Part shown: piece after piece, positions 7,016 to 33,235 of the stretch
How positions within the stretch are numbered: the first letter of the stretch is position 1
Layout: each line of letters begins with the position of its first letter
NCBI GenBank assembly: GCA_050743905.1
Contig: JBOGGH010000001.1
Location: 1-33,430 of the forward strand
DNA from: Acidimicrobiales bacterium
GTDB lineage: Bacteria > Actinomycetota > Acidimicrobiia > Acidimicrobiales > RAAP-2
DNA length: 33,430 nucleotides
Direction of reading: 5' to 3'
Made by a program: the position numbers and the translations under genes
The notes under the pieces: model-generated
What the model saw: the letters and a program-made list of their open reading frames with translations, nothing else
What the model was told of the DNA's origin: nothing
Database searches by the model: none

Positions 7016-7194
7016 TGCCGGGTGCCAGTAGCCCGGTTGTCGTCTCCGGGCTGCTTACTGCCCGGTACAGCTATGGCGTCCCGTGTGCCGCCATTCGCCG
7101 ACGGTCGGACGGCGGTAAGTCGCTTGCGATCCGATGAGGCCGAGGTCACACTGACGTACATCCGTTTGTCCGTTCAATGGCACAGGAGTGTGCG

Positions 7195-11497: not shown

Positions 11498-11735
11498 TAC
11501 ATAACGAGATCCCCGAGCAGGGGCATTGCGTCCAGATGGAGGACGGACTTGCGTGACCGACACTCCCCCCGCCACCAAGTACGGGCGTTTTTCGCGCCTT
11601 CTTGCGTATACACAGGCCGCTGACCAGCACGTTTCTTCCGTCGCGTTATGAGCCACCGCGCTAGATAAGAAGGCCATGCCGAGACGGCGCCCCGAGGGTA
11701 AGTGAGGCGGTATAAGAACGAGTCAGCCCGATGCT

Positions 11736-13981: not shown

Positions 13982-14101
13982 CGTGCGGGCCTTTCTCGTT
14001 GGATAAGAGGATAAGTGCTGGTCTTGAGGCTATTTTGGCAGGAGGCCGGAGTCCGGGCCTGGTTGGCTACACGAGGAGGGCCAGGCTGCAGCCCAGGCCC
14101 G

Positions 14102-14782: not shown

Positions 14783-14795
14783 GGCGATCTTGCCG

Positions 14796-17263: not shown

Positions 17264-18396
17264 CGTTGTGCCGCCTTGGCTTGCACGTAGATCCGGATGA
17301 GGTAACTCGACAGTTCGTTGGTGTGTCGGGGCACGTTCTGGATGTCGTTCCAGCGCATGTCCAGCCCTTCCCACGTGCCGGCGGTCCAGTGGCAGTGGGG
17401 AGCGACGAGGGCCAGGTCTTCGAGGACTTGCTCGGCGGCGGCCTTGTTGCGGGGGTCGACGGTTGCCATGACGCGGTCCATGAGTCGCCCCATGGCCCGT
17501 ATGCCGGCGCCGTGCATGAGCCGGCTCTGGGTGGGTGGCTTTCCCCACGCTTCCGGAAAGGTGGCCTGGACCGCGGACCAGTAGACGACCAGGACTTGCC
17601 AGATACCGGCGAAGTCGGTCTCGCCGCTGGTCATGTTCCGGAACGGGAACAGGCAGCCTGATGGTGAGGTGAGGCTCTCTTCGAGCATCTTGACGATGCT
17701 CGTGTCGGTCACGACGGCTTGGCGGCGGAGATCCTTGTCGGTCGAGGACCGCTTGATTAGCCCTCGGAAGGGTGACTGCTCGTCAGAGTTGAAGAGGTCG
17801 CAGAGCGCGGAGGGCATGCGCCGAAGGGCCAGGCGCGCCGGGAGCGGGCTGCTGATCGTGGGCAGCAACTCAGTGACCAGTCCTCGGGGGAGGGGTTTCG
17901 CGTTGTTAATCCGCAGGAACTGGTCGCGCTGGATGTCGATCGAATCGGTTACGAAGGCATTCACGGGCACGCAGAGGTCCTGCCGCTTGGCGCGGGCGAG
18001 GGCGAGGGTCCGTTGCTGGCCGTCGACGATCCAGCCGGCCTTGGGTTCGCCGTTGAGCGGGAGCGGGATCTCAAGCTTGCCTTGGGCGGTCGCTCCGTCT
18101 CCGATCGTTGGGCCCCGGCCCGACGTGAATTTCACGGTCGAGGGGAGCGCAACGATGATGGGGTTCGGGAAGATCACCTGGTCGCCGTCGAGGTAGTCGA
18201 CGATCTCTTGGATGTGCTGGCGAACCTCGGGGCGCTGGTAGCCGATGAGGTCACCGCTTTGGTCCCGGCTTACTCGTGAGATGTCAGCGATCTGGAGGAT
18301 CTCTGATGCGGTCAGGCTGAAGAGGTAGAGAGGGCAGCCGGGTGTTTGCTCGATACGGAGCGCCCGGAGCGTCAGCGTCGCTGGCGGTTTGCTCAT
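17260..18396 (-). CDS. DGQHR-family protein with a DGQQR variant (DpdB/DndB-like), paralog A
   Basis: GWIVDGQQRTLALARA, FLRINNAKPLPRGL and IGYQRPEVRQHIQEIVDYLDGD. ATG 18396 overlaps the upstream stop as ATGA (18393-18396). Confidence 0.8.
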   Translation of the reverse strand: MSKPPATLTLRALRIEQTPGCPLYLFSLTASEILQIADISRVSRDQSGDLIGYQRPEVRQHIQEIVDYLDGDQVIFPNPIIVALPSTVKFTSGRGPTIGDGATAQGKLEIPLPLNGEPKAGWIVDGQQRTLALARAKRQDLCVPVNAFVTDSIDIQRDQFLRINNAKPLPRGLVTELLPTISSPLPARLALRRMPSALCDLFNSDEQSPFRGLIKRSSTDKDLRRQAVVTDTSIVKMLEESLTSPSGCLFPFRNMTSGETDFAGIWQVLVVYWSAVQATFPEAWGKPPTQSRLMHGAGIRAMGRLMDRVMATVDPRNKAAAEQVLEDLALVAPHCHWTAGTWEGLDMRWNDIQNVPRHTNELSSYLIRIYVQAKAAQR

Positions 18397-19343
18397 CGGG
18401 CCTCGATTGACTCGGCGCGAAACAGCGCGGCAAAGCGACTCTGCTCGCAGGCGAGATCGGAGTTCCGGAACTCGCGGAGCAACCGAGAATGGGTGGCGGT
18501 GTCGTCGGCACGCAGCCGCCGACGGATGAACGTTCGGACCTGGGCGTCGGAGGCAGGTCTCCGTTCGTAGCGGGGAACAGGTGGCTGCTCGGCTAGTAGG
18601 GCGGTCAGCGAGGCCTCCATGTCGGCATGGCTCGTGGCACCAGCAGCTAGGACGTGGGACACGGCTCGGACGTTGAGGGCCTGCCGAGTCCCGCCAACGA
18701 CATGCTGCAAGCGTGCGTCAACCGGCAGCAGGTACGGAGCGAGTTCGGCGTCACGTTTGGTGCCCGCCGAGACGACGCTGAACTGCCCGGGCCGCGCGGA
18801 GTCGGCCGCGCTGATGAGGTCGAGGCGACAGGCCCGCACATACGGGGCCGAGAGGGCGACGATCACACGCGACGAGGGATCGTCCTCGACGAGCGCGGCG
18901 AGCGACCGGGGCGCAGCGGCTGGGCCGTCCCAGCGTTGAAGGGCCGCCCACCATCGTGCAGCCCCCGCATTGCCGTCGGGGATGCTGTCGGGGCTGTCGG
19001 CGGAGAACGTCGCCGAGTAGGGCAGGAGTTCGGCAACGGCTGGAATGAGCCCGTATCCGGCGGAGCAGATCCACAACTCGACCGGTATGCCGACGACGTC
19101 CGAATCGCAAAGGTGGCGGGCCACCTCCCAGTGTTCACCGACGTAGAGCTCTACTGCGGAAACCGTAGGGGCGGAGTTGTGGTTCAGCCGGCGGACCCAC
19201 GTCTTCATCCTGGCTGAGGGAGTGAGGTGGTTGAGGACACGCAGATGCAGCGCGTCTGGGACCACCATCGACTTGCGATGGCTGCAGGTCACGACGACCC
19301 GTATCCGCTTCGGGCGACGACTGTCGGCGCGCTTTGCTACCAA
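18393..19343 (-). CDS. DUF6884-like domain protein (N-terminal) with an unassigned C-terminal half
   Basis: RIRVVVTCSHRKS, ELYVGEHWEVARHL and WICSAGYGLIPAVAELLPYSATF match my memory of the DUF6884 pattern (Cs..K / ELY.G..f / ilSA.yGL...PYd.t). The start is uncertain: TTG 19343 (overlaps the folE2 stop) or ATG 19268. The long track extension to 19790 is rejected. Confidence 0.5.
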   Translation of the reverse strand: MVAKRADSRRPKRIRVVVTCSHRKSMVVPDALHLRVLNHLTPSARMKTWVRRLNHNSAPTVSAVELYVGEHWEVARHLCDSDVVGIPVELWICSAGYGLIPAVAELLPYSATFSADSPDSIPDGNAGAARWWAALQRWDGPAAAPRSLAALVEDDPSSRVIVALSAPYVRACRLDLISAADSARPGQFSVVSAGTKRDAELAPYLLPVDARLQHVVGGTRQALNVRAVSHVLAAGATSHADMEASLTALLAEQPPVPRYERRPASDAQVRTFIRRRLRADDTATHSRLLREFRNSDLACEQSRFAALFRAESIEAR

Positions 19344-20152
19344 CGTGCCGCCTCCGGTTGTGATGGCGGCCACGCCAGCCGGGCGAAGGCGGCGTGGTTG
19401 TGGATGCTCTCGTCGTTGACTGCTTCGACCGAGAACCTGACGAGCCTCGGATCGTGGCGCAGGCCCTCCGCGACGCTTCGGACCATGTCCTCGACGAAGA
19501 CGGGGTGGTCGTAGGCGGCCATCGTGACGTGCCGCTCGTCGCCGCGCTTGAGGAGCGGGTACACGGGGCTCGATCCGGAGGCCTCGGCCGTCTCGATGAG
19601 ATCCTCCAACCACACGGAGTCGGCGTCGTCTGACCAGCTCGGGACGGCATGAATCGTCACGATGCCCCGCTGGTTGTGTGCCCCGTAATTGCTGATCGCC
19701 TTGCTGCACGGGCAGACGCTGGTCACCGGCACACTGGCCGAGATCGCGAACTCCACGCCGTCGTCGTTGATAGAGGCGTTGATCCCGCACGTGTAGTCGA
19801 CGAGCGCGCTAGCGCCGCTCACCGGGGCCGAGCGCCGCAGGAAGTATGGGAACCGCATGACGAGTCTGGCGCTGCGAGCGTCGAGTCGGTCTCGTAGGTG
19901 CTGGAGCACCGCCGGGATCGAGTGGGGAGTGAGCTCACCGGCGTGGGCGTCGAGGACCTCGACGAACCGGCTGAGGTGACTGCCCTTCTGCTCGGGCGGC
20001 AGCGATACGGAGAGGGAGATGTTGGCGACGGTGTCTTGCTTCCCCTGCTCGGCGTGGAAGACCGATACCGGGTAGCGCAGACCGCTGATGCCGACCTCGT
20101 CGATGCCGATACCGCGGATGTCTGGCTCGCTTTGCACGTCGGGAAGGGTCAC
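19337..20152 (-). CDS. folE2: GTP cyclohydrolase IB (FolE2/MptA type)
   Basis: [21 protein letters not shown] and [16 protein letters not shown] are FolE2 signature blocks. GTG 20152 overlaps the queD stop as GTGA (20149-20152). Confidence 0.85.
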
Positions 20153-20511
20153 GTGCCCTCTCCTCGGTAGGCGACGCCGGACGTGCACGTCTCACGCACG
20201 ACGACCTCCGCCAACTGGGGCAATGCCGTGATCAAGTGGTTCCAGACCCAGCGGGCCAGGTTCTCGCTGGTCGGGTTGTCGAGTCCTTCGACCTCGTTCA
20301 AGAAGTAGTGGTCGAGCCGATCGAGCAGCGGCGCGAACGCGGCCTTGATCTCGGCGAAGTCGATGACCATCCCAGTCGCCGGATCGATGTCACCTCGGAC
20401 CCGCACCTCCACCCGGAAGGAGTGCCCGTGGAGCCGGGAACACTTGTGGCCCTCGGGAACGTGAGGGAGGCGGTGCGCGGCCTCGAAGGTGAACTCGCGA
20501 AAGACATCCAT
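20149..20511 (-). CDS. queD: 6-carboxy-5,6,7,8-tetrahydropterin synthase
   Basis: [36 protein letters not shown] is a QueD/PTPS pattern. ATG 20511 shares one base with the queE stop. Confidence 0.9.
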
Positions 20512-21149
20512 CAGCGGATCCCCGTGTACTTGTGGGTCTGGAGACTGAGCCGCCATCTCGGGTGGGCCAAGCAGTACTCGATGGCGAGCGCGGTGTTCTT
20601 CTCTCGTTCCGGGCCGTCCATGGGTTGCAGCAGGAACCGTTCGAAGCCCAAGTGCTCGAAGATGTCGGGCGTGGCCGTCGCTTGAGGGAAGACCAGCTTG
20701 AGTTCGTGACCGTGATCGAGCACGAGCGGCGCGCCGGCCTTGGGGCTCACGCAGATCCAGTCGAGCCCTCGGGGAGCCGGCTGCGTGCCGTTGGTCTCGA
20801 CTCCGACCGCGAAGCCGACCTCATGGAGGGCGTCGACTGCGGCCTCGTCCAATTGCAGGAGGGGTTCGCCGCCGGTGCACACCACGTATGGCTGGGCCTC
20901 ACCGCCGACATCGCCAGCCCAGGCGGCGGCGACCGCGTGGGACAGGTCTTCGGGAGTTTTGAACCGCCCGCCGCCGGGGCCGTCAGTCCCGACGAAGTCG
21001 GTGTCGCAGAACTGGCAGATGGCCTTCGAACGTTGCGCCTCCCGGCCGGTCCACAGGTTGCAGCGGGAGAAGCGGCAGAAGACGGCGGGGCGGCCTACCT
21101 GAGCACCCTCACCTTGGAGGGTGTAGTAGATCTCCTTGACCAGGTACAT
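20511..21149 (-). CDS. queE: 7-carboxy-7-deazaguanine synthase (radical SAM)
   Basis: [42 protein letters not shown] carries a CX14CX2C cluster motif, as in the Burkholderia-type QueE. ATG 21149 shares one base with the queC stop. Confidence 0.9.
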
Positions 21150-21847
21150 CAGCCGCGGGTCGTGGCGAGCGCCGGGTCCTCCATCCCGACCTCAGCGAAG
21201 CCCTTCTGTCGGAGCAGGCACGAGTCGCAAGTCCCACACGGCCGACCGTCGCTGTCCGGGTCGTAGCAGCTGTGGGTCAGCCCGTAGTCGACCCCGAGTT
21301 CGACCCCGCGCTGGATGATCTGCGCCTTGGTCAGGTCGATCAGGGGGGTGTGGATCCGCAGGTGCTGGTGGCCCTCGACCCCTGCCTTGGTGGCCAGGTT
21401 GGCCATCGACTCATACGCCGCGATGTACTCGGGCCGGCAGTCGGGGTAGCCGGAGTAGTCGAGCGCGTTCACCCCGATGAAGATGTCGCTGGCTTCCAGC
21501 GTCTCCGCCCAGGCCAGAGCGAAGGACAGGAAGATCGTGTTGCGGGCCGGTACGTAGGTCACCGGGATCCCCTCATCGAGGTCGTCCACGCTCTGGTGGT
21601 GAGGGACGGCGATGTCTGCGGTCAGGGCTGATCCGCCGAATGCCCGAAGGTCAATGTCAGCCACGACGTGGCCGGCGGCCCCCATGGCGTCCGCTACCCG
21701 CCGCGCCGCCGCGAGCTCCACTTCGTGGCGCTGGCCGTAACGGAAGCTCAGCGCATATGGGCGGAAGCCCTCGTCCTTGGCGATGGCCAAGACGGTCGTT
21801 GAGTCAAGACCTCCACTGAGCAGGATCACCGCTGGTTGGTCGCTCAC
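21149..21847 (-). CDS. queC: 7-cyano-7-deazaguanine (preQ0) synthase
   Basis: PP-loop [11 protein letters not shown] and C-terminal zinc motif [23 protein letters not shown] 21847 is preferred because GGAGGAG lies 5-6 nt upstream; the track start GTG 21853 abuts the RBS. Confidence 0.9.
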
Positions 21848-21909
21848 GTCCACTCCTCCGATCTGGGTCGTTGGGGTCGACGTCCTACCTTTGCACCAGG
21901 GCGCAGGTC

Positions 21910-22308: not shown

Positions 22309-23457
22309 ATGTACACGATCGCTGTGACCGAGGGTCACCAAGGCAAGCACCGCTACTTCACCGGAAGCGTGCCCGTGGGTGAACTGGAGCACATCGTCAA
22401 GTTCCCCGAGGACCTCGGGGACCTCGATGAAGACGAGCAGATGCAGCGGAGCATCGCCCGGCGCCGGATCGGCGACCTCGTCGAGTACCTGACTACCGTG
22501 GACGACCACTTCTTCTCCGCCGTGACCCTTATGATCCTGCCTCGGTCGCTCGACCGGCCAGCGGTCCTCGGAGACCTGGGCGACGAGGAGGACGACGGGG
22601 AGTACGACTACGCCTTCGAGCGGGCCGAACGAGGCCGTCACCCCGGCAGGATCCGACAGGGCTGGCTCCACATGAGCGGCGACGTCATGTTGTTCCCCGC
22701 CGACGGCCAGCACCGTCTCTACGCCGAGTTCGATGCCATGAAAAGCGAACCCAGTCTCTCCAAGGAGGAGCTGCCCGTCGTCTTCTTGCCCTACGAGTCC
22801 GCCGACCAGGTCCGTCAACTCTTCTCGGACCTGAACCTCAACGCCAAGCCCATCAGCAAGACGCTTGCCCTTGGCTATGAGAGCCGGGACCCCATGGCAC
22901 TCCTGGCCAAGGCTGTTGCCCCCCGGGTATCGCTGTTCCGGGAGCGGCTCAACCTGCGGACCAACTCGCTGCCCAAGAGTTCGGCCAACGTCATCACCCT
23001 CAACACCTTGGTGCAGGGATGCCGGGATCTCGTCGAGGGCTTCGCCGGTGAGGACAAGAACGACCAACGGAGCTACCTGGCGCCCAAGCACTTCGACGAA
23101 GCGGTCGCCCAGATCACCGCCGCGTGGGAAGACATCATCGACCCCTTCTCTGAGCACTGGGATCGAGTCACCAGCGACGAGATCACGCCAGGCGACCTAC
23201 GTGACGAATACCTCTTCCCCCACGGCCTCGGATGGAGAGCTCTTTCCTCCGCTGCGGGAGAACTGATCGCCGCCGACCCCGACAACTGGGCGGCCAAGTT
23301 CGCCAGAGGCGTCGGCGCCTACAACTGGGCACGCACCGCCCCCGAGTGGGAAGGCAACGCCGTCATCCACGACCGCGACAAGGGCACCAACCGGGTCAAC
23401 AACACCGACCCCGGCGTCAACCAACTCAAAGAACTGATCCTCAAGGCCGCCGCGTAG
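22309..23457 (+). CDS. DndB-like DGQHR-domain protein, paralog D
   Basis: MLFPADGQHRLYAEF and FSDLNLNAKPISKT are DndB/DGQHR blocks. A strong RBS TAAGGAGGA precedes ATG 22309. Confidence 0.8.
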   Translation: MYTIAVTEGHQGKHRYFTGSVPVGELEHIVKFPEDLGDLDEDEQMQRSIARRRIGDLVEYLTTVDDHFFSAVTLMILPRSLDRPAVLGDLGDEEDDGEYDYAFERAERGRHPGRIRQGWLHMSGDVMLFPADGQHRLYAEFDAMKSEPSLSKEELPVVFLPYESADQVRQLFSDLNLNAKPISKTLALGYESRDPMALLAKAVAPRVSLFRERLNLRTNSLPKSSANVITLNTLVQGCRDLVEGFAGEDKNDQRSYLAPKHFDEAVAQITAAWEDIIDPFSEHWDRVTSDEITPGDLRDEYLFPHGLGWRALSSAAGELIAADPDNWAAKFARGVGAYNWARTAPEWEGNAVIHDRDKGTNRVNNTDPGVNQLKELILKAAA

Positions 23458-23495
23458 GCCTCGAGGCGCACGAAACGGATCGGAGATCAACGACA

Positions 23496-24800
23496 ATGAC
23501 CAGTACCCAGCTCCCCGCACAAGGCCTCGTCTTCTGGCCCGTCGGCACCGGCGACAGCACCACGGTTGTCATCGACGACGACCACGTCATCCAAGTCGAC
23601 ATCCACGACATGGCCATGGCCGATAACGACGGCGCCATCGTTGCCGCCGTGGTCGACCATCTCGTCGAGGTACTCCCCGAACGTGACGGGGCGCCGTACC
23701 TGGCCGCCTTCATCCTGACTCACGCCGACAAGGACCACTGCCTCGGGTTCGCCGACCTCCTCGACAAGGTGACCATCGGCGAACTATGGGCCACGCCACG
23801 CTTGTGGCGGGAGTACACGGACCACGACGTCGAACTCTGCGACGACGCCAAAGCATTCCATGAGGAAGTGCTCCGCCGGGTAGACGCCACCCTGGCCGCT
23901 GTCGCCGACGGCAAGGAACCCGCGTCGGGCAACCGGATTCGTGTCGTCGGATACGACACGGATCAGGACACGTTCTCCTACCACGACCTGCCCGCCGAAT
24001 ACCTCAGCCACCCGGGCGACGCCGTGGCGATCGTCGATGGAGAGGATGTCTCGGATCGCTTCGAGGCGTTCATCCACGCACCCTTCAAGGACGACTGCGC
24101 TGCTGAGCGGAACGACACCTCCCTGGCGATCCAAGTCACGCTCAAGACCGACGAGGGCGACGAGGGCCATGCGTTGCTGCTCGGAGATCTGGCCTACGAG
24201 ACGATCACGAAGATCTTCGATTACAGCGAGGACAACGACCGACCCGAACGGCTCACCTGGGAGGTCCTCCTCGCGCCCCACCACTGCTCCAAGAAGGTCA
24301 TGTACGTGACCGAGGACGGCACCGAGGTCCTCAAGCAAGATCTCCTCGACAAGCTCGAACGTCACGAGGCGGGCTCTGCAACCGTTGTCGTGAGCAGTGA
24401 CGAATTCCCCGACAGCAACAAGACGGGGGACAACCCACCTCACCTCTTGGCACAGGCCCGCTACGAGGAGATCGCGGACTCGCTCGTCTGCACTGGCGAA
24501 TACCCAGATGCGGACGCTCCGCGCCCGATCGTGTTCGGTATCGACGGTGATGGATTCTGCATCCTCGAGTTGGAAGAGGAAGCTGCTGAGGCCGTCACCA
24601 AGTCGGCCGATGCCCGCGGCGCACTCGTAGCCGGCGGCGTAGGGGTGCTCGCAGCCCTGCCTGCCACCTACATAGCGAGTCGCAGAAAGCGACAAACGAA
24701 GCCGCAAGGCGGCGGCCTCGAAGAGGTCCGCCGAGCTGTCACCACGGCAAGAGGCGACGAAGCGGCACCTCAACAACCGGTCGGCTTCGGCCAGCCATGA
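23496..24800 (+). CDS. metallo-beta-lactamase-fold protein (ComEC C-terminal-like), with a C-terminal hydrophobic segment
   Basis: GLVFWPVGTGDSTTVVIDDD, FILTHADKDHCLG (an HxDxDH variant of HxHxDH), LLLGDLAYE and LLAPHHCSKK parallel the ComEC-type MBL blocks. The tail has GALVAGGVGVLAALPATYIA followed by SRRKRQTK. ATG 23496 follows GGAGA; the track extension to 23232 is rejected. Confidence 0.8.
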   Translation: MTSTQLPAQGLVFWPVGTGDSTTVVIDDDHVIQVDIHDMAMADNDGAIVAAVVDHLVEVLPERDGAPYLAAFILTHADKDHCLGFADLLDKVTIGELWATPRLWREYTDHDVELCDDAKAFHEEVLRRVDATLAAVADGKEPASGNRIRVVGYDTDQDTFSYHDLPAEYLSHPGDAVAIVDGEDVSDRFEAFIHAPFKDDCAAERNDTSLAIQVTLKTDEGDEGHALLLGDLAYETITKIFDYSEDNDRPERLTWEVLLAPHHCSKKVMYVTEDGTEVLKQDLLDKLERHEAGSATVVVSSDEFPDSNKTGDNPPHLLAQARYEEIADSLVCTGEYPDADAPRPIVFGIDGDGFCILELEEEAAEAVTKSADARGALVAGGVGVLAALPATYIASRRKRQTKPQGGGLEEVRRAVTTARGDEAAPQQPVGFGQP

Positions 24801-27391
24801 ACCTGTCGCTGACCACCGGTCAGCGTCTCGCCCTCGACCAACTTCGACACCTTGTCGCCTCCTCCGATGGGAGCATCGACATCCCCGCCGAGCCCACGGT
24901 TGTCGGAGATCTGCTCAAGGCGGAGATATCGCTCGACTGCTCGGGGACGCCGACCGCCGAGGGAGGACTGGCCCTACGGCGGCGGGAGCGGTTCGCCATC
25001 TACGTTGCTCCAGATTTCCCGTTCTCGATACCCACCATCGTTGTGCCTCACCACCGCTGGGCCGGGATCCCGCACGTGCAGTGGTGCTGCCAACTCTGTC
25101 TCTACGCCGCCCCGTCGATCGAGTGGGATCCGGCCGACGGAATGTTCGGGCTGATACAACGACTCAGCGAATGGCTACATCAAGCGGCCCTCGGCGAACT
25201 CGATCCCGACGATCAGCCACTCCATCCACCAGTCGCCTACACCTCGGCTACTCATGGCGTCATCGTCATCCGCGCCGACCTTGGCGACCGCGCCCCTACC
25301 ACCAGTACCACGACTCGCGGCAACTCGTCCCTCCGGTCGGCGCAGACCCAAGAGGCCAACCCCGGCGCCCGCCTCGTGGTCGGCCTGACGGTCGACCACT
25401 CAGAAGGCCGTCGAGATCTCATCGAGTGGGTGGATCGACGGGAATGGTTGCAACGCTTCACTGCCGGACAAGTCCCATCCGTCCGCGATGGCAAGCCCGT
25501 GGCCGGCGTCCTCGCTGTCCTTTGCAACGCCGAGATGAGCTTCGAGTACCCCAAGCAGGCAGCCGCCCTTATCGCGGCCCTGGAGACCTTCGGGCTCCCA
25601 CGTAACGAGCTCTTCGACGCCGTCGGAGAAGTCGCCGCCGTCAACTATGAACTCGCTCGCCACCGAGCAGGCAGCGGACCAATCAACCCTCCCCCTGTCG
25701 ATCTCCTGGTCGGCACCCCGTCTCGGCGCATGCAAGAAGCAGCCCTCAGACAGCATCTGGTGTGCTGGCGCTTCAACGACGTCGGCCGCCTCATCACCGA
25801 GAACGTGATCTTCGCCAACTCCGACCACGCGGCTCTTGCCCACCTCGGTGAACTGGCCGAAAAACTGCTCCCAGACTGGATCGCAAACACTGAAACCTCA
25901 TGGGTACGAGTACTGGAGGACCGAGCCGAGGTCACCATCCGACGCGACACCAACAGCAGCGCCTCGTGGATCCGGGGTCGCCGTATCATCGTCATCGGTT
26001 GCGGAGCACTCGGCGGTCCCATCGCCGAATTCTGTGTCCGTGGCGGGGCGGCAGCCGTCTGGGTGATCGACGAGGACATCGTCACGCCGGGCATCTTGGT
26101 GCGCCAGCCCTACACCGACGACGACATCGGCGTCAACAAGGCCGTCGCCCTCAGCAGTCGGCTCAACAGGATACGAAGCGACCAGCCCGTGCAGCCCGCA
26201 ACAGGCAGCGCTGAGGCGGTCCTCCTCGCCGACGGCGCAGGTGCGCCCAACGTTGATCTGGTCATCGACGCCACGGCCAACAACACGGTGGCAGCCCTCA
26301 TCGAACTCCGCCGAAACCAGCACGGCGAGACCTGGCCGCCGATCATGTCGGTCGCGATAGGCCACGATGCCCGACGCGGCATAGTCCTGGTCACCAAGCG
26401 CGACGCAACTGGCGGCCCCCGAGAGGTGATGCGACGACTGGCCCTTGCCGGCCGAACGCACCACTCCGGACGGCTCGCAGACGTCGCAGCGGACCTATTC
26501 CCCGCTGAGTCTCGAAGCGCGACCTTCCAACCCGAGCCGGGCTGCTCATCTCCTACCTTCACCGGATCAGCCGCTGATCTCTCGGCCCTGGCCGGGCACC
26601 TCTTCGATGCAGGGCTCCGAGCCTTGACGAGTGACGGTCCCGCCCCGACAGCCGAACCCATGGTCGCGGGCATCGTTCGGCTCCCGGAGGTGCAGAACTC
26701 GTCGCTACCTGGAACCGACTGGTTCGGATGGCCGAACGACGCCGTCTCTCGCAACAACTCCAGCGACTACGAGATTCGGATCAGCCACCCAGCCCTTTCC
26801 CGCATGCGAGCAGAGGTCCGACGAGGCGCCCGTCTCCGTGGCCCCAACATCGAGACCGGCGGCCTCCTGCTCGGCCAAATCGACGACGCGTGCCGCTGCA
26901 TCTGGATCGACGACGTCTCCGGGCCGCCGCCCGACAGCCTCCTCTCCGCCGTTCACTTCGACCACGGCGTCGAGGGCGTCAACGAACTCGTCGCCTACCA
27001 CCGAAACCGCAGCGGGCGGCTGACGACGTTCGTAGGAATGTGGCATAGCCACCCGTACGGCGAGGCCAAACCCAGCGAAACCGACGAATACGGGATGCGA
27101 AGTCTGGTAACCCCGCTAGCGAACGGCCCGAGCAGAGCGCTGATCGTGATCATCGGCGGTGATGACGCCACCTGGACCAGATGGGTGACGTCCGGCCAGC
27201 CCCCCGACATCTTCGGACAACTGGTGACCCGAGCGGACACGAAAGGGCCACGAAAAGCACCACCGGTACCACAAAGCCATCAAACCTCCGCGTGGCCGGG
27301 CGGATGGACCTCTCGACCTCGCGCAGCGACCAAAAGGCGTCGGCTGCGAGTCTGGCCCTGGCGTCGCCGACACTTGATGAGGGCAAGATGA
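24797..27391 (+). CDS. single-polypeptide E2-like / E1 (ThiF)-like / JAB (JAMM) fusion protein
   Basis: E2: IPHVQWCCQLCLYAAPSIEWDP (Cys101 codon at 25097-25099). E1: RRIIVIGCGALGGPIAEFCVRGG...VIDEDIVTPGILVRQPY. JAB: IETGGLLLGQ ... MWHSHPYGEAKPSETD (HSH codons from 27044). The start overlaps the MBL stop as ATGA (24797-24800). Confidence 0.85.
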   Translation: MNLSLTTGQRLALDQLRHLVASSDGSIDIPAEPTVVGDLLKAEISLDCSGTPTAEGGLALRRRERFAIYVAPDFPFSIPTIVVPHHRWAGIPHVQWCCQLCLYAAPSIEWDPADGMFGLIQRLSEWLHQAALGELDPDDQPLHPPVAYTSATHGVIVIRADLGDRAPTTSTTTRGNSSLRSAQTQEANPGARLVVGLTVDHSEGRRDLIEWVDRREWLQRFTAGQVPSVRDGKPVAGVLAVLCNAEMSFEYPKQAAALIAALETFGLPRNELFDAVGEVAAVNYELARHRAGSGPINPPPVDLLVGTPSRRMQEAALRQHLVCWRFNDVGRLITENVIFANSDHAALAHLGELAEKLLPDWIANTETSWVRVLEDRAEVTIRRDTNSSASWIRGRRIIVIGCGALGGPIAEFCVRGGAAAVWVIDEDIVTPGILVRQPYTDDDIGVNKAVALSSRLNRIRSDQPVQPATGSAEAVLLADGAGAPNVDLVIDATANNTVAALIELRRNQHGETWPPIMSVAIGHDARRGIVLVTKRDATGGPREVMRRLALAGRTHHSGRLADVAADLFPAESRSATFQPEPGCSSPTFTGSAADLSALAGHLFDAGLRALTSDGPAPTAEPMVAGIVRLPEVQNSSLPGTDWFGWPNDAVSRNNSSDYEIRISHPALSRMRAEVRRGARLRGPNIETGGLLLGQIDDACRCIWIDDVSGPPPDSLLSAVHFDHGVEGVNELVAYHRNRSGRLTTFVGMWHSHPYGEAKPSETDEYGMRSLVTPLANGPSRALIVIIGGDDATWTRWVTSGQPPDIFGQLVTRADTKGPRKAPPVPQSHQTSAWPGGWTSRPRAATKRRRLRVWPWRRRHLMRAR

Positions 27392-28476
27392 CTCAACCAC
27401 GAATCGGCCTGGCAATCTCAGGCGGAGGATTCCGTGCGGCGTGCTTCGGGCTCGGCTGCCTCCGTGCCCTGCACGACCAAGACCTCCTCCGACACGTCCG
27501 GGTCATCTCAGGCATCAGCGGAGGCAGCGTCCTCACCTCCCTCTATGCGTACGGGCCGGCTGAATTCGAGACCTTCGACGCGTCGGTAGTAGAGCTACTG
27601 AGACACGGAATGCAGCTTGAGATGGCGGCCCGGGCGCTCAGACCAGACACCGCCGCACGCAACCTCGCGGATGCAGCTCGCGTACTCCTTACGCCGAGAA
27701 AATCCACGCCACACCTGAGATCTGCGAATCGGACGGACGCTCTTACCGCGGTCCTCTCCAACCGAGGGCTGGGCGACAAGACGATGGCCAATATCGCCCA
27801 CAACGACCTCGCGGCCGTGATCACGGCCACCGACCTCCGCACCAGTAACGCAATGCGATTCGGCAGCCTCCGAAGTTCCTGCTCGGCATACGGAACGATC
27901 GTGGAACCAGTACGCGTTGCCGAAGCTGTCGCGGCGAGCGGAGCCTTTCCTCTCCTGCTCCCAGCAGTGGAGCGCTCCTACAACTTCCGCTCCCATCCTG
28001 ACGAACCGAGCGAACGACAAGCACTCCTGCTGACTGACGGAGGGATCTATGACAACCTCGGCCTCAGCGTCCTCGAACCCGGACGGTCCCCAGCACACAC
28101 GGCGCACACCTACGACGTCGACTACGTCATCGCATGCGATGCCGGCCGTGGAAAACTACCGCTGGCGGCCGGCCACTTCGCAGCTGCCCGTCTGAAGCGC
28201 AGCTTCGACGTCGTCCACAAAAGATCCCAAGACGCAGCTCGTGGACGACTACACGAAGCTGCTGCCGCTGGCCGAATACAGGGATTCGTCCACGCGTACC
28301 TCGGCATGGCCGACGCAAGGTTGCCGGTCCCGGTACCCGACCTCGTGCCGTCCGACGCTGTCCGGCAGTACCCGACGAACTTCCGCAAGATGCCCGACGC
28401 GTCGATCGACTCCATCAGCATGCGTGGTGAGCAGCTGACCAGGACGCTGCTCGCTCACTACTGCCCGGACCTCTGA
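27388..28476 (+). CDS. patatin-like phospholipase
   Basis: MTQPRIGLAISGGGFRAACFG (oxyanion GGGxR), ISGISGGSVL (GxSxG) and LLLTDGGIYDNLG (catalytic DGG). ATG 27388 overlaps the upstream stop as ATGA. An alternative in-frame ATG 27304 cannot be excluded. Confidence 0.85.
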   Translation: MTQPRIGLAISGGGFRAACFGLGCLRALHDQDLLRHVRVISGISGGSVLTSLYAYGPAEFETFDASVVELLRHGMQLEMAARALRPDTAARNLADAARVLLTPRKSTPHLRSANRTDALTAVLSNRGLGDKTMANIAHNDLAAVITATDLRTSNAMRFGSLRSSCSAYGTIVEPVRVAEAVAASGAFPLLLPAVERSYNFRSHPDEPSERQALLLTDGGIYDNLGLSVLEPGRSPAHTAHTYDVDYVIACDAGRGKLPLAAGHFAAARLKRSFDVVHKRSQDAARGRLHEAAAAGRIQGFVHAYLGMADARLPVPVPDLVPSDAVRQYPTNFRKMPDASIDSISMRGEQLTRTLLAHYCPDL

Positions 28477-28539
28477 CTCGTCGTCTCACGCGCGGGTCCA
28501 CATTTCGCGTAGCGCCGAGGTCAGGGAAGTAGCGGCTGG

Positions 28540-29184
28540 CTACAGCGGCCGCGCCGGGGCCACCGGCTGAAGGGAGCGGAAGTGCATCCACCAGATCATG
28601 TCGAAGATCTCGATTCTCGATCGTTCGGGAGCCTTGGCGGTCAGCGCATCCCAAGCGCTGGTGTTCTCAGAGCGGGTGAGGTCGACGTAGACCCACTCAA
28701 CGGCCTCGCGGATGCGAGAGAAGGAATAGACGCTGTCCTGCGAGGCCTTGGCCTCAGGCCACTGGGGATTCATGTAGGCACCGAAGATCGCCTCATTGTC
28801 CAAGATGGGGATCAAGACGGGCCGCTTCTTGTGCAGCACCTTCGTGGCGACCGACGCGGCGAAGCCGGGCCAGGAGGTGACGGCGGCGATCGTCTGAGCC
28901 ACGAGATCCCGAACCTGCGGGGTGCTCTCCTGCAGTGGGGTCGAGGGCACCTGGGCAAGATCGAGCTCATGACCGCGATCTTGGATGCTCTTGAAGGCGG
29001 CCGGTCCGACCCGAGAGTTGATCAGGATCGTGACCGCCAAGTCGTCCGGCACGAGAACGTTGGGATCGGCGATCGGCCGGTAGCCGAGGTAGCGCAGTCC
29101 GTCGTCAGTTCGATAGGCGTCGAGGAGGACGTCTGGGTCGCTGAGGGTCCGATCGATTCGACCACCGCCAACGAGCAGTTCCAT
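28540..29184 (-). CDS. hypothetical protein (possibly DUF6308-like)
   Basis: 214-aa track ORF. The block ATKVLHKKRPVLIPILDN recalls actinobacterial DUF6308-type proteins, from memory only. The opposite-strand ORF 28582..29193 has a shadow-ORF composition. Confidence 0.5.
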   Translation of the reverse strand: MELLVGGGRIDRTLSDPDVLLDAYRTDDGLRYLGYRPIADPNVLVPDDLAVTILINSRVGPAAFKSIQDRGHELDLAQVPSTPLQESTPQVRDLVAQTIAAVTSWPGFAASVATKVLHKKRPVLIPILDNEAIFGAYMNPQWPEAKASQDSVYSFSRIREAVEWVYVDLTRSENTSAWDALTAKAPERSRIEIFDMIWWMHFRSLQPVAPARPL

Positions 29185-29236
29185 GGGAGATAGCTTGCCG
29201 CCCAGTGCTCCTGGAAGGCCGCATCCGTAGTCGGCG

Positions 29237-29743
29237 ATGGCATCGTGCCAGAGTGGGGCGATGATCGATGGACCTCGGATGCTCGATGAGTTTCAGGAGG
29301 CAGCCAAGAGGGTCGGGCTGCTGAGCGAAACCGTCCTCATCAGTCACGAGCACCTGCCGGCACCCCACCGTCCGCCGTCGCGACTACGAGCCGAGAGCAC
29401 CGCCGTCTACGTATTCTCCTTGAGTGCCGACTACGGGACGACCTGCCCAGCTGGTCCGAACCGGGTGCTCAAGGTCGGGAAGGTCGGCGCCAACAGCGCC
29501 GCCCGCTTCTGCTCCCAGCACTACCTTCCCGGCTCCGCGGGCTCCAACCTGGCCAAGAGCCTGCTCGCCGAACGGGTGCTATGGCCGTACCTCGGGATCA
29601 CACAACTGGATGCAGCGGGCATCAAATCCTGGATGTGCGAGCACCTCGACAGGGACCACACCTTCGTCACCGGGCAGCCAGGTCTGGAGCGAGAGATCGA
29701 GCGTTACTTCCGCGGCCGGCTTGGTCCGGTCTTCGAGGGTTGA
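29237..29743 (+). CDS. hypothetical protein, GIY-YIG/T5orf172-like by weak motif resemblance
   Basis: TAVYVFSL ... VLKVGKVGANSAARF ... LEREIERYF loosely parallels the GIY / YIG / R / E blocks. The start is uncertain (ATG 29237, 29261 or 29279). Confidence 0.35.
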   Translation: MASCQSGAMIDGPRMLDEFQEAAKRVGLLSETVLISHEHLPAPHRPPSRLRAESTAVYVFSLSADYGTTCPAGPNRVLKVGKVGANSAARFCSQHYLPGSAGSNLAKSLLAERVLWPYLGITQLDAAGIKSWMCEHLDRDHTFVTGQPGLEREIERYFRGRLGPVFEG

Positions 29744-29752
29744 TCGGGCCAG

Positions 29753-30349
29753 GTGCCACCGTCGCCCCTTCGGCGATGCGCCGCCTACGGATTCCCCGCA
29801 AGCGTCGTGGCCTCATGTATCGATACGGGTGTAACGCGCGATCTGCTCTTTGTCCGCGGCTGGCGCTCGGGACTGGGCGACCTGACGAGACGCGAACGGG
29901 CCACCATCGCAGGAGTGACCGGCCATATTGCCGAATCCGTCATTGAGGTGCTTCTTGAACCCCTGGGATGGTCCCCCCTATGGCACATGACCGGGCCGGG
30001 CTGGCACGGCGTCGATCTGGTGCTGCTCGCCCCCGGCGACGTCGTTGTTGCGATCGAGGTGAAGGGCACCCTCGTACCAGGTCGAGTCCCGCGCTTGTCA
30101 GCCGGTGAGATAGCGCAGATGAGCGCTGCCTGGGTTGACAAGATCGACAACCCAGGGATGGCAGAACTCGGTCTTGCAAGCACCGACGTCTACGGCGGCG
30201 TCTCCGTTGTCAACTTCGCTGACCTCACCTGGAGAGCGGCACTCACCCGCGACTTTCTGGACTTCGAGCCGATCAACGCCCAGGAACAACTGGCTGACCT
30301 CACCTGGCTAGTGGACGCGGGAGGACCGGGCGACCGAGGGGCGAACTAG
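29753..30349 (+). CDS. PD-(D/E)XK (Mrr-cat-like) restriction-endonuclease-fold protein
   Basis: GHIAESVIEVLLEPLGWSPL ... WHGVDLVLLAPGDVVVAIEVKG gives the E ... D ... E-x-K arrangement of the restriction endonuclease fold. GTG 29753 lies 9 nt after the upstream stop. Confidence 0.45.
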   Translation: MPPSPLRRCAAYGFPASVVASCIDTGVTRDLLFVRGWRSGLGDLTRRERATIAGVTGHIAESVIEVLLEPLGWSPLWHMTGPGWHGVDLVLLAPGDVVVAIEVKGTLVPGRVPRLSAGEIAQMSAAWVDKIDNPGMAELGLASTDVYGGVSVVNFADLTWRAALTRDFLDFEPINAQEQLADLTWLVDAGGPGDRGAN

Positions 30350-30394
30350 GCTCCCGCTACGGACCCGACCACGACCCCGTTCGACGATCCCCAG

Positions 30395-30805
30395 GTGGGG
30401 GGTGCCCATCGAGCCCTTGCCGCGCTCGCAAGGACCGCCGACGAGCGGTGCGGCCACGAACCCGGGCTCGACTGTGTCCTCTGCTTCGTGAAATACGACC
30501 AGCTCGTCGAGCATGCCGAGGGCTATCCGGGCTCCCTCTTCGCAACGGAGGACGAGCACCGTAAGTTCTCCGAAACGTACCTGAGCGATGAGCGCAACCG
30601 CGAGCGTGTCATCGCGATGGTCTTGAACGTCGCCTCCCAACAATCCGGAGATAGTGCGGACCTAGCGAATCGCATCATTGACCGGATGGCCCGCACTGAT
30701 GCTGGGTGGGCTGGGGCGAAGCCGCAGTTCTACGCCCTGCCGGCTCCTGGGGGGCTGGGGGTCGCTCTTGCGATCTACGACACCTTCTGGACCGAACGAT
30801 GGTAG
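30395..30805 (+). CDS. hypothetical protein (136 aa, Cys-x7-Cys-x2-Cys near the N-terminus)
   Basis: GTG 30395. Third-codon positions are G/C-rich throughout, consistent with coding. The stop overlaps the start of the caspase-like gene. Confidence 0.5.
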   Translation: MGGAHRALAALARTADERCGHEPGLDCVLCFVKYDQLVEHAEGYPGSLFATEDEHRKFSETYLSDERNRERVIAMVLNVASQQSGDSADLANRIIDRMARTDAGWAGAKPQFYALPAPGGLGVALAIYDTFWTERW

Positions 30806-31638
30806 CTGCGCGGGAGGACGGAACGTCGTTCGTCCTCGCGGTCGGTGTCGACGACTTCTCGGATCCCTTGATCCCGAACCTTCAGTGGGCCGTAGCTGAC
30901 GCCACCGCGTTCTTCAGCGTCGCCACGTCTGGTCGGGATCCCGATCGGCTCGATGCACGCCTCCTGGTCGACGGGAACGCGACGCTCAAGGCAGTTCGCA
31001 ACGCGCTAGGAGAATGGCTCGCCACGTCGCGGCCATCGGACAACGTTGCGGTCTACTTCGCCGGCCATGGGGCTCGTGAGCTTCCACCAGGCGCCGACAT
31101 CAACCACGCGGACGCGTACCTCCTGCCTTCCGATGCCGAGATCAACAGCCTCTATTCGACGAGCCTGTCGTTGCGCTACGAAGTCCCTACCTTGCTTCAG
31201 CGCATTGCCGCTCGTCATGTCATTTTCATCCTCGATTGTTGCCTGGCAGGAAGCTCGCGAACCACCGCTCCCGGGATGCGGAACCGTGGCATCGACGGTC
31301 CGAATATCACCCGCGCCGAAGCGGTCGCGGGGCACTCGCTCCACTCCGCAGTCGCGCTCGCAGCGGGCGGAAGCGCCGACGTCGGTGAAGGCGTCATCGT
31401 CCTGTCAGCATGTGGACCCAACCAGTCCGCCCTGGAAAGCGACGAGTTCGGACACGGCATCTTCACGCACTTCCTGACCAGCCTGATGCAGCACGACCGT
31501 GAACAGGGAGTCCAGGTGGCCTCGGTGGGTTCCCTGTACGAGCGCACGACCAAACTCGTTCGAGACTTCAGTTCCTACGAACAGATCCCGATGCTCGAAG
31601 GTCGCGTCAGCGATCAGGGACTGTATGTCGGTGGGTGA
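30799..31638 (+). CDS. caspase-like (peptidase C14 fold) protein
   Basis: FVLAVGVDDF, NVAVYFAGHGA (catalytic His) and HVIFILDCCLAGS (catalytic Cys) form the caspase His-Cys dyad. ATG 30799 overlaps the upstream gene by 7 nt. Confidence 0.75.
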   Translation: MVAAREDGTSFVLAVGVDDFSDPLIPNLQWAVADATAFFSVATSGRDPDRLDARLLVDGNATLKAVRNALGEWLATSRPSDNVAVYFAGHGARELPPGADINHADAYLLPSDAEINSLYSTSLSLRYEVPTLLQRIAARHVIFILDCCLAGSSRTTAPGMRNRGIDGPNITRAEAVAGHSLHSAVALAAGGSADVGEGVIVLSACGPNQSALESDEFGHGIFTHFLTSLMQHDREQGVQVASVGSLYERTTKLVRDFSSYEQIPMLEGRVSDQGLYVGG

Positions 31639-33235
31639 GCCGTCCTTTGACAATGCCATCGATGTCGGCCTTCTGGCGACTCCATTGCGCATATTGGGGG
31701 AGACCAGGTGTGCAGACCAGGTCATCCGCTTGAAGGCGCCCCCAGGTGCCGATCCTCGTGAAATCCCCCTCGATGCGACTTACCACCACGAGTGGGCGCA
31801 CTACGTCCAATACTCAGCGACCCCCATCGGCATCCTTCTCTCCTCCTTCCGACGCGCCTGCGTCAAGGCGCTCTCAAACGCGCTTGTCAAATCGCCGATC
31901 GAGTTCGCAGCGAATCGAGAGGACCTGAGTGAAAGCGACGGGACGGACTACTGGGGGCGTCTCGACCGCCTGAATCGCAACTGGGACGCGTGGCGCCCAG
32001 ACTGGTACGTAATCGAACGCCGCTCAGTGCGTGAAGTCACCTCGGCCCACCTGGACCCCCGCGGGTTGCTGGTGAACCTGGCTGGGCTAGATGGACAGTT
32101 CTGGCTGCCAGTTGGGCCAAAGCAGATCTTTGAGGCCTGGGCCTGGCTCGTCGAGCAGATGCATCTCGTCGCCGTCGAACAGGCTGATCGTCGCTTCATG
32201 ATTCCTCGCGGAGCTGACAGCCTCATCTATACCTGGCCGATCTGGGCCTACGCCTCTCAACACGATCTTCCAATCGAATCGATCGATATCGCGACGGCCT
32301 TCCAGTTCCTCCCACCACTCTTCGTTTCCTGCTTCTACGACAGCCGCATCCTTGATCTCGAAGGGCGGGGGATCAGCGACTCGTTCCAGGCATGCGTTGC
32401 AATTCTCAAGGACCGCCGCGTCTCCTGCGGCCGGCTGTTCTGGCAAATGCTCCACGACCATCATCGTTTTGATCGTTCCGTGCCCATCAGCCGAAGCATG
32501 GATCAGTATCTCACTGGCCTCGGGATTCCGTCGCTCTCGACAATGCTGGAATCCACCGGGTTGCTCCTCGAGCGAATGATCATTGTCCACGAGGAGAACG
32601 CACAACAGGCGTCGGACTACGCGCGAGAGCGTGGTGGCGTAGCGAACCTCCTCCACGACATGGTCGAGCGCGAGTTGCTCGATACCTCGGTTCGCAACCT
32701 CGCAGTAATTGCTAAGAACCTGGAACGCGCCCTGTCGATGCCGCTGGCGCTGAGAGATCATACGGAGGCTGCGGTATGTGCGATCGAGATGGAAGATCAC
32801 TTCGCATGGGTAATCGTCCACCTTGGTCAACCGTTCGCTGGCGAGAGGAAGGTGGTGGCTGACAATCGCGTGCGGCTGCGACAGCAGCTCGCCATCTTCG
32901 AGCATGTTCTCTTCCAGTTTGCCGATGGTAAGCACGTTGGCTGCTACGGCTCACCTGAATGGCGTATTCCGATCAATGCTTGCCCGTCGGCGGTGGCGTG
33001 TATGGATCTCAAAGACAAGCATGGTCTTGGGTTTTGCGTGGATGCGGATTGGCGACGGAAGGTCGCATCCATACTTTCTCCCGTATTCGCACATTCCGAT
33101 ACGCCGTTGACCGACAAGGAGGTCCCCGGGATCACTGCGGCCATCGATGAGCTGTGGCAGTGGATACGGACCGAGGAAGCAGCCAATAGCGTCATTGACC
33201 TCCCGATCCTCGGCATTCCGCTTCCCAGGTCTTGA
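31625..33235 (+). CDS. HExxH-motif protein (putative zinc metallopeptidase), family not recognised
   Basis: LDATYHHEWAHYVQYSATP contains HEWAH. ATG 31625 overlaps the caspase-like gene by 14 nt. 536 aa. Confidence 0.55.
   Translation: MSVGEPSFDNAIDVGLLATPLRILGETRCADQVIRLKAPPGADPREIPLDATYHHEWAHYVQYSATPIGILLSSFRRACVKALSNALVKSPIEFAANREDLSESDGTDYWGRLDRLNRNWDAWRPDWYVIERRSVREVTSAHLDPRGLLVNLAGLDGQFWLPVGPKQIFEAWAWLVEQMHLVAVEQADRRFMIPRGADSLIYTWPIWAYASQHDLPIESIDIATAFQFLPPLFVSCFYDSRILDLEGRGISDSFQACVAILKDRRVSCGRLFWQMLHDHHRFDRSVPISRSMDQYLTGLGIPSLSTMLESTGLLLERMIIVHEENAQQASDYARERGGVANLLHDMVERELLDTSVRNLAVIAKNLERALSMPLALRDHTEAAVCAIEMEDHFAWVIVHLGQPFAGERKVVADNRVRLRQQLAIFEHVLFQFADGKHVGCYGSPEWRIPINACPSAVACMDLKDKHGLGFCVDADWRRKVASILSPVFAHSDTPLTDKEVPGITAAIDELWQWIRTEEAANSVIDLPILGIPLPRS

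Follow-up and report, generated by a model that had tools for sequence, protein, structure and literature searches.

The locus described here raises the question of whether four adjacent genes of an Acidimicrobiales bacterium make up a new anti-phage system or are known elements lying side by side. The window, that is, the whole stretch of DNA that was analysed (33,430 nucleotides), carries on its plus strand genes for a DGQHR/DndB-like protein (22309-23457, 382 aa), a metallo-β-lactamase (MBL)-fold hydrolase (23496-24800, 434 aa), a triple-module E2-E1-JAB protein equivalent to a fusion of Cap2 and Cap3 (24797-27391, 864 aa) and a patatin-like phospholipase (27388-28476, 362 aa). An original prediction, made from the sequence alone, had read these genes as one unit in which ubiquitin-like transfer controls a nuclease and/or a lipase, with the DGQHR protein as a DNA sensor. 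The open reading frames (ORFs) and junctions of the window were checked, and the predicted coordinates, orientation and ribosome-binding site proved correct. All four ORFs lie on the same strand, the sequence AAGGAGG is found 6 nt upstream of the ATG at 22309, a gap of 38 nt (23458-23495) separates the DGQHR and MBL genes, and ATGA overlaps join the MBL gene to the fusion gene (24797-24800) and the fusion gene to the patatin gene (27388-27391). No extra ORF was present in the operon, and no gene for a ubiquitin-like protein (Ubl) was found between or beside the four genes. Similarly, the operon and the 24 window ORFs that were scanned gave no match to a cGAS/DncV-like nucleotidyltransferase (CD-NTase) or SMODS domain, in agreement with what had been predicted.

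We conclude, with a probability of about 80%, that the region 23496-28476 encodes a three-gene 6A-MBL anti-phage system, a cyclase-free relative of the type II cyclic-oligonucleotide-based anti-phage signalling system (CBASS), that it works through the conjugation mechanism proposed below, and that the DGQHR gene is separate from it. The window operon is two known things side by side, a 6A-MBL triad and a DGQHR gene associated with a Dpd cluster, and not a novel four-gene system. Recognising this avoids a false call of a new system and a misleading sensor hypothesis for the DGQHR protein.

The MBL and fusion genes encode a 6A-MBL pair

The proteins encoded by the two adjacent genes each passed the cut-off of a curated NCBIfam model. 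The fusion protein scored 350.1 bits against NF058523 ('6A-MBL_cap2_3', cut-off 320), and the MBL scored 265.6 bits against NF058524 ('6A-MBL_enzyme', cut-off 220), with the match extending over profile positions 1-346 of 346. Homologues from Rhizobium, Rhodococcus, Spirosoma and Bacteroidetes also passed the 6A-MBL equivalog cut-offs. The system is therefore already named by existing models, and the novelty that had been expected with respect to classifiers did not hold.

The designation '6A' refers to row 6a of Table 1 in the survey by Iyer, Burroughs & Aravind (2006; PMC1779556), in which an operon of an E2-E1-JAB protein and a specialised MBL was described as having 'usually two genes'; this is the operon that the original prediction had attributed to these authors. 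Row 6b of the same table became type II CBASS (PMC1779556). According to a review, anti-phage activity of 6A-MBL was shown experimentally in P. aeruginosa by van den Berg et al. (2024, Cell Host Microbe), and a preprint counts 6A-MBL among the known jumbo-phage defences. Phage resistance is reported in these citing papers for the P. aeruginosa homologue only. The earlier statement that the architecture had no experimentally defined function is thus out of date, as judged from the NCBIfam name and from the papers that cite van den Berg et al. (2024), while the defence role that had been proposed is upheld by the anti-phage 6A-MBL models and by the activity cited for the homologue.

Profile searches with Pfam identified three domains in the fusion protein, in the order Prok-E2_A (6.7e-22), ThiF (8.5e-14) and Prok-JAB (2.2e-11), and searches with PADLOC models gave 1.3e-78 for the best E1-E2 model and 2.8e-19 for JAB. 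The UBC-like E2 domain occupies residues 40-153 (24914-25255), and its catalytic Cys101 (codon 25097-25099) is invariant along with H93 and Y103 in an alignment of fusion homologues (A1). The E1 adenylation domain spans approximately residues 368-611 (25898-26629) and contains the Rossmann motif G401-C-G-A-L-G-G and an invariant loop, P579-E-P-G-C583-S, in which C583 is presumed to be the E1 catalytic cysteine. The JAB/JAMM isopeptidase domain follows at approximately residues 652-798 (26750-27190), with the motif H750-S-H752...S760..D763 encoded at 27044-27085; E686, H750, H752, S760 and D763 are all invariant in alignment A1.

We also modelled the structure of the fusion protein with AlphaFold2 (AF2), which gave a predicted local distance difference test (pLDDT) score of 77 and a predicted template modelling (pTM) score of 0.71, with low pLDDT across residues 573-586, the loop that carries C583. 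A Foldseek search with this model returned the Cap2-CdnD02 complex 7TO3 as the top match in the PDB (E = 3e-22). The JAB part matched Cap3 (9ILD, 1.5e-7), and Bub structures were more distant matches (E ~1e-10). At the level of sequence, Cap2 (7TO3) was again the best PDB match of the E1 region (2.5e-10). Homologues of the window fusion numbered 683 at E <= 1e-10 and were mostly from Actinomycetota, and 578 homologues were retrieved with a Rhizobium fusion as the query.

The metal-binding motif of the MBL, H76-A-D78-K-D80-H81 (HxDxDH), is encoded at 23721-23738. In an alignment with 29 homologues (A2), H76, D78, D80 and H81 are invariant, as are D231, H262 and H263. The MBL could be a nuclease, an assignment that we rate somewhat below even odds. 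With the E2 cysteine, the E1 cysteine loop, the JAMM motif and the MBL ligands intact, and with adjacent genes that pass both models, the window pair resembles other 6A-MBL systems in every defining sequence feature that was compared. It differs in being actinobacterial and in encoding longer proteins: the fusion has 864 residues, compared to ~750 in Proteobacteria, and the MBL contains an Ala-rich hydrophobic linker. This stretch lies just before the C-terminal tail of actinobacterial MBLs (approximately residues 380-405 of the window protein, nucleotides ~24630-24710) and is absent from the shorter MBLs of Proteobacteria and Bacteroidota. Overall, the profile searches bore out the DGQHR/DndB, E2, ThiF, JAB, patatin and MBL assignments of the original prediction (strongly with NCBIfam for the MBL, and weakly with Pfam, where Lactamase_B_2 gave E = 0.0026, below the gathering threshold), and the catalytic residues that it had singled out were present and invariant in the homologue alignments.

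Two relatives of the triad with 89% identity to the window, L049 (8804-10004) and L050 (1039-2239), carry an altered MBL gene. In both, unrelated sequence beside a Replic_Relax gene takes the place of the first ~35 codons (105 nt), so that the N-terminal FWPVGTGD motif is lost, and these copies are, from their sequence, probably disabled.

A patatin gene completes the conserved unit

We collected 48 loci with the fusion from species-representative genomes and searched them with the four window proteins. Of these, 46 contained the 6A-MBL pair, L036 was a CBASS locus, and L048 had a weak ThiF match only; the MBL gene was directly upstream of the fusion gene in 46 of the 48. Whether a patatin gene accompanied the pair could be scored in the 42 6A-MBL loci whose contig reaches far enough, and in 41 of them, from several phyla, a patatin gene was located directly downstream of the fusion gene. 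Loci on plasmids or chromosomes of Alpha- and Betaproteobacteria and Bacteroidota show the same order of MBL, fusion and patatin, with examples in Paraburkholderia, Bradyrhizobium and Spirosoma. This order was also found on pDK1, a plasmid of Rhodococcus, and the Rhizobium plasmid pRLa11 carries the triad with a split patatin. The boundaries of the unit are also apparent at the DNA level, since homology to L001 and L002 (68-71% identity) starts at 23497-23511, at most 15 nt past the start of the MBL gene, and ends at 28476-28480, at the patatin stop codon.

Two cases were found in which the E2-E1-JAB modules continue in frame into a C-terminal patatin, namely P0107, an actinobacterial metagenome protein of 1220 aa, and L035 (6573-10070), from a deltaproteobacterial metagenome-assembled genome (MAG). 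The occurrence of a single E2-E1-JAB-patatin ORF in two unrelated lineages points to a direct functional, and probably physical, link between the proteins. The conserved unit is thus predicted to be the three genes for the MBL, the E2-E1-JAB fusion and the patatin (23496-28476). NCBIfam models two proteins for this system, and the near-constant and sometimes fused patatin argues for a functional unit of three genes in place of the two in current models. In the accessible literature, which does not include van den Berg et al. (2024), we found no report that a patatin is regularly the third gene, and none of the shared tail presented below; we claim no novelty for either.

The patatin matched the Pfam Patatin family at 8.6e-18. 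Its oxyanion motif (GGGFR, residues 12-16), nucleophile Ser44 (27517-27519) and Asp217 (28036-28038) were identified, and G12-G-G-x-R16, S44 and D217-G-G are invariant in an alignment of patatin homologues (A3). Since neither the metal ligands of the MBL nor the Ser/Asp dyad of the patatin varies, both activities are expected to matter. The C-terminal half of the patatin, which is non-catalytic, is also conserved, with the motifs QD, YLG..D, PTxF and RGEQLT. Patatins from Proteobacteria, Bacteroidota and Chloroflexota contain a hydrophobic insert of ~28-36 residues (A3 columns 113-147) that is absent in actinobacterial patatins. Set beside the hydrophobic stretch of the actinobacterial MBLs, this insert may indicate that membrane anchoring has moved between the partners.

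Neighbourhood clustering of ~50 loci revealed no conserved cyclase, with the exception of the CBASS locus L036, and a single recurrent neighbour of the triad. This was a divergent pair of genes for a helix-turn-helix protein (HTH_31/HTH_3) and a Peptidase_M78 protein, similar to CapH/CapP, which was present in 11 of the ~50 loci. CapH and CapP are DNA-damage-responsive regulators of CBASS, and the presence of a similar pair upstream of the triad fits an immune operon. The top clusters in the clustering were antisense ORFs over the 5′ end of the MBL gene, which are artefacts. The HTH and Peptidase_M78 pairs lie directly upstream of the MBL gene on the minus strand, for example in L003 (2864-3749) and L001 (5296-6628), and no such pair was found in the window. 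In the triads of L010, L040, L044 and L060, ORFs for the MBL, the fusion or the patatin appear to be frameshifted or split, as a result of either decay or assembly errors.

A shared C-terminal tail and a proposed mechanism

The C-terminal tail of the window MBL is conserved (AVTTARGDEAAPQQPVGFG-QP, 24735-24797). We found that 45 of 47 distinct MBLs end in RG-x4-5-(A/P)P-x3-4-[V/I/T]-G-F-G followed by 0-4 variable residues, the core form being ...ARG-x4-P-x3-VGFG. The commonest ending is a single Arg, and the window protein ends in QP. In alignment A2, every MBL from Actinomycetota, Proteobacteria, Bacteroidota, Chloroflexota and Verrucomicrobiota has Phe431 and Gly432, and Gly432 is presumed to be the acceptor end, with QP as a removable cap.

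The locus L036 (5292-10301), from a Planctomycetales MAG (DAIDHB010000431.1), was informative with regard to this tail. It encodes the same triple fusion (Prok-E2_A, ThiF and Prok-JAB; 37% identity), preceded by a SAVED-domain effector and a SMODS CD-NTase instead of an MBL, and is, going by its gene content, a bona fide type II CBASS locus. The CD-NTase of L036 ends in ...AIAAARGSAEPPRTRVGFGR and the window MBL ends in ...AVTTARGDEAAPQQPVGFGQP, so that both carry the same ARG...P...VGFG tail. A tail common to the MBLs and to this CD-NTase suggests a portable handle that is recognised by this family of fusions. The comparison places the MBL in the position of the CD-NTase as the conjugated substrate, and the patatin in the position of the effector. 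We consider it very probable that the MBL is conjugated through its tail, and the VGFG tail thus provides a concrete conjugation handle and a predicted processing site.

In type II CBASS, Cap2 reportedly adenylates the C-terminus of the CD-NTase and conjugates it (Ledvina et al. 2023), and the structures 7TO3 and 7TSQ are described as Cap2 bound to the C-terminus of CdnD02. By analogy, the JAB domain of the window fusion would trim the cap from the MBL, exposing Gly432, and would later reverse the conjugates. The E1 domain would adenylate Gly432, following the Cap2 precedent, and the glycine would then be carried as a thioester on the loop Cys583 of E1 and subsequently on Cys101 of E2, before attachment of the MBL to lysine residues of its target proteins. 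If the MBL plays the part of the CD-NTase in this manner, neither a Ubl nor a cyclase would be needed in the operon. Conjugation could prime or activate the pathway during infection, with the MBL as the upstream enzyme, most likely with nuclease or phosphodiesterase activity. As the terminal effector, the patatin, in physical association with the fusion protein, would hydrolyse membrane phospholipids and cause cell death by abortive infection, and on balance we regard it as the probable killing effector.

The MBL could be linked to the patatin in three ways, through a small-molecule product, by direct conjugation or within a complex, and the natural E2-E1-JAB-patatin fusions favour physical coupling. 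The near-universal and sometimes fused patatin, together with the tail common to MBLs and the CD-NTase, also leads to a bolder suggestion, namely that in 6A-MBL, as a pathway of the CBASS type, the signal is the conjugation of proteins itself in place of a nucleotide second messenger, such that ligation of the MBL through Gly432 to the patatin or to membrane-proximal targets switches on the phospholipase and the nuclease. We put this forward as a speculation with a low chance of being right.

The first of the three links, if taken as the core of the pathway, amounts to CBASS-like signalling without a cyclase. In such a scheme a hydrolysis product of the MBL, for example a nucleotide-derived small molecule, would activate the patatin allosterically, and conjugation would only tune the MBL. 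Cyclic GMP-AMP (cGAMP) activates CapV, which provides a precedent. The analogy with L036 is exact, gene for gene, with a CD-NTase bearing the same tail and a SAVED effector in the positions of the MBL and the patatin, and the conserved non-catalytic half of the patatin could bind a ligand. In addition, the conjugated proteins are called 'their respective signaling enzymes' in PMC11601596. However, the patatin lacks CapV-type similarity, and its in-frame fusion to the conjugation enzyme is more readily reconciled with a physical complex than with a diffusible signal. MBL-fold enzymes are hydrolases and, to our knowledge, none is known to synthesise a second messenger. We therefore judge a small-molecule signal to be unlikely, and prefer conjugation of the MBL with physical coupling of the patatin to the fusion protein.

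Relation to CBASS and other conjugation systems

The window triad and type II CBASS share homologous conjugation machinery, as seen from Cap2 being the best match in both sequence and structure and from the match of the JAB domain to Cap3. In neither is there a free Ubl, the C-terminus of the upstream enzyme itself being the substrate (predicted, in the case of the MBL), and a phospholipase is the likely effector. The CapH/CapP-like regulators upstream of some triads are a further likeness. The two differ in that no CD-NTase/SMODS gene is found in the 6A-MBL operon or its conserved neighbourhood. An MBL hydrolase is present in its place, and a nucleotide second messenger is therefore not expected. 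Moreover, Cap2 and Cap3 are fused into one protein in the window, and the patatin is not assigned to the CapV family by PADLOC. Ye et al. use the term 'Type II CBASS/Pycsar/MBL' for pathways in which the enzyme of the pathway is itself conjugated by a fused E2-E1 protein, with regulation by a JAB peptidase. The window copy is an actinobacterial member of 6A-MBL and is probably CBASS-like in its working, which makes it ordinary as a discovery and useful for the study of mechanism. The accessible literature says little about how 6A-MBL works, and the role of Cap2-type conjugation without a cyclase becomes directly testable.

Bil and Bub systems also employ protein conjugation based on E1, E2 and JAB proteins in anti-phage defence. 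They have separate Ubl, E1 and E2 proteins, however, and Bub uses Ser instead of Cys, whereas the window locus has no Ubl gene. Membership of the window locus in either was rejected, as no separate β-grasp Ubl gene is present and the genes overlap or are 38 nt apart. The original prediction had also pointed to the ParB-related/ThiF-related cassette (PRTRC). This candidate was discarded because the PRTRC_ThiF model TIGR03736 gave 22.1 bits against a cut-off of 144.75.

The DGQHR gene and the adjacent Dpd island

The DGQHR protein matched Pfam DndB (PF14072) at E = 1.4e-58 and the DGQHR domain model TIGR03187 at 149.6 bits (cut-off 58.85). Its score against the DndB equivalog TIGR03233 was 148, below the cut-off of 328, and dndA, C, D and E were not found among the window ORFs scanned. 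A role in Dnd phosphorothioation was rejected on these grounds. The protein did not match the DpdB equivalog model either.

Divergent to the DGQHR gene, on the minus strand, is a Dpd cluster at 12566-21907. It contains genes for QueC (21149-21853), QueE (20511-21149), QueD (20149-20556), FolE2 (19337-20188), an unknown protein of 465 aa (18393-19790), DpdB (17260-18396), DpdA (~16016-17782), a second DpdB (14796-16226), a protein of 267 aa (14102-14902) and a divergent DGQHR protein of 487 aa (12566-14029). DpdA scored 584.7 bits (cut-off 200), the two DpdB proteins scored 507 and 430 bits (cut-off 300), and QueC, QueD, QueE and FolE2 were above their cut-offs. The cluster is, by these matches, a complete 7-deazaguanine DNA-modification island. 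It is unusual in having two DpdB paralogues together with two further DGQHR proteins.

We asked how often the DGQHR gene accompanies the triad. It was absent within 8 kb of the fusion gene in all 48 genome loci, and also at 5 further triad loci; L049 and L050, in which homology starts 105 nt inside the MBL gene as a result of the rearrangement, were not included as evidence of a triad without the gene. The one lineage with a DGQHR gene beside the triad was that of the window itself (L051-L054, 87% identity), and there too a divergent Dpd cluster lies alongside. Conversely, we inspected the contexts of six orthologues of the DGQHR protein (45-55% identity), and no MBL, fusion or patatin gene was present in any of them. 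Two of the orthologues, in L055 and L057, are at the edge of orthologous DpdA/DpdB/QueCDE/FolE2 clusters, and the one in L055 adjoins an orthologue of the window gene at 12566-14029. A third (L066) is found in what resembles a prophage, close to a gene for queuosine salvage, and those in L056, L058 and L065 stand alone. The DGQHR gene therefore resembles a Dpd-associated gene in its position beside DpdA, the two DpdB proteins, QueC, QueD, QueE and FolE2 and in its orthologues that flank such clusters. It differs in not being a DpdB equivalog, in falling below the DndB equivalog cut-off, and in having several orthologues that occur alone. From this distribution, the gene is predicted not to be a member of the 6A-MBL unit, which it merely abuts in this lineage, and is attributed to the adjacent Dpd island, putatively as a regulator or restriction-side factor.

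A number of observations weigh against the reading of the locus as a three-gene 6A-MBL system with a separate DGQHR gene. The profile search of the MBL against PDB sequences returned spurious ankyrin/DARPin matches and a non-significant match to ComEC (E = 0.04), and a single-sequence AF2 model of the MBL was unusable (pLDDT 37). The description of the protein as a 'ComEC-type' MBL is upheld as regards the MBL fold, and is not established as regards ComEC, since its basis is the HxDxDH motif and the E = 0.04 match. The patatin matched the PADLOC model of the CBASS phospholipase effector (CapV) at E = 0.067 only, over 50 residues, and trimming of the cap by the JAB domain is proposed by analogy only. 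One scorable 6A-MBL pair, L042 (10198-12271) from a Bacteroidetes MAG, has no patatin gene. Finally, the DGQHR gene is on the same strand as the MBL gene, 38 nt 5′ of it, and no terminator-like site was found between the two in a promoter/terminator scan that is itself uninformative for high-GC DNA. Co-transcription of the DGQHR gene with the triad, and a functional link specific to this lineage, are possible.

The position of the DGQHR gene also speaks for a genuine four-gene system, in which a DGQHR/ParB-like DNA sensor would trigger ubiquitin-like transfer that controls the MBL nuclease and/or the patatin. The gene has a strong ribosome-binding site, and its arrangement with the triad recurs in L051-L054. 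Against this, the triad occurs without it in the 48 genome loci and 5 further loci, from several phyla, so that the quartet was not found together outside the window's own lineage, which has the Dpd cluster as well. The block of homology with diverged relatives excludes the DGQHR gene, and its six orthologues occur without MBL, fusion or patatin genes, two of them at the edge of a Dpd cluster. A four-gene system is thus very unlikely, and the proposed function of the DGQHR protein as a DNA sensor is without comparative support.

The pair in L042 is preceded by a DruA-like gene and followed by genes for an unknown protein of 271 aa and a RelA_SpoT-domain protein.

Surroundings of the triad

The triad of the window sits in an apparent defence island on an element that seems mobilisable, to judge from the genes for a relaxase, TIR and SIR2 proteins, an AriA/Old-like ATPase, a caspase and the Dpd proteins. 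A gene for a MobA/VirD2-type relaxase is present on the minus strand at 4946-6655. No plasmid match was found for 12000-33430 (megablast, PLSDB), and a search of IMG/VR returned one distant relative only, suggesting that 6A-MBL-type systems are not typically phage-borne. Some relatives of the triad are near Replic_Relax genes or on plasmids, while many others are chromosomal and beside other defence genes. Many homologues of the fusion are labelled 'integrative and conjugative element protein' by JGI, and the window fusion scored 44.8 bits against the corresponding model, TIGR02256 (integrative and conjugative element, ICE, protein; cut-off 127.6). That the triad serves instead in maintenance, addiction or transfer of a mobile element, as the old TIGR02256 label of the JAB domain, the relaxase and the plasmid-borne relatives might suggest, is the least credible alternative, given this failed cut-off, the many chromosomal loci with CapH/CapP-like regulators and defence neighbours, and the anti-phage NCBIfam name and experimental anti-phage activity cited for the homologous system.

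Immediately 3′ of the triad is a DUF6308 gene on the minus strand (28540-29292). Such a gene is also located downstream of the triad on the Rhodococcus plasmid pDK1 (L059 9838-10125). We rejected DUF6308 as a conserved partner, since neighbourhood clustering gave no general association.

At the other end of the window, convergent genes for a SIR2-like protein (1088-2641, plus strand) and a TIR-domain protein (2667-3935, minus strand) may, from their domains, be a Thoeris-like or other TIR/SIR2 defence pair; the TIR-domain protein matched the PADLOC PDC-S66 and ThsB-like models. A gene for an AAA_15/AAA_21 ATPase with AriA/Old/GajA-like PADLOC matches is found at 7138-9051 (plus strand). Searches of the window for tRNAs and Rfam families were negative, also for an intergenic stretch of 77 nt (11558-11634). 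The stretch is 87% identical to L049 18425-18501 and L050 10660-10736, regions that are otherwise non-homologous to the window. Downstream of the DUF6308 gene, three small unannotated ORFs (29231-30805) precede a gene for a caspase-like Peptidase_C14 protein (30700-31638, plus strand), which is followed on the same strand by a 578-aa ORF without a family match (31499-33235). The Peptidase_C14 gene and this ORF could form a further defence module.

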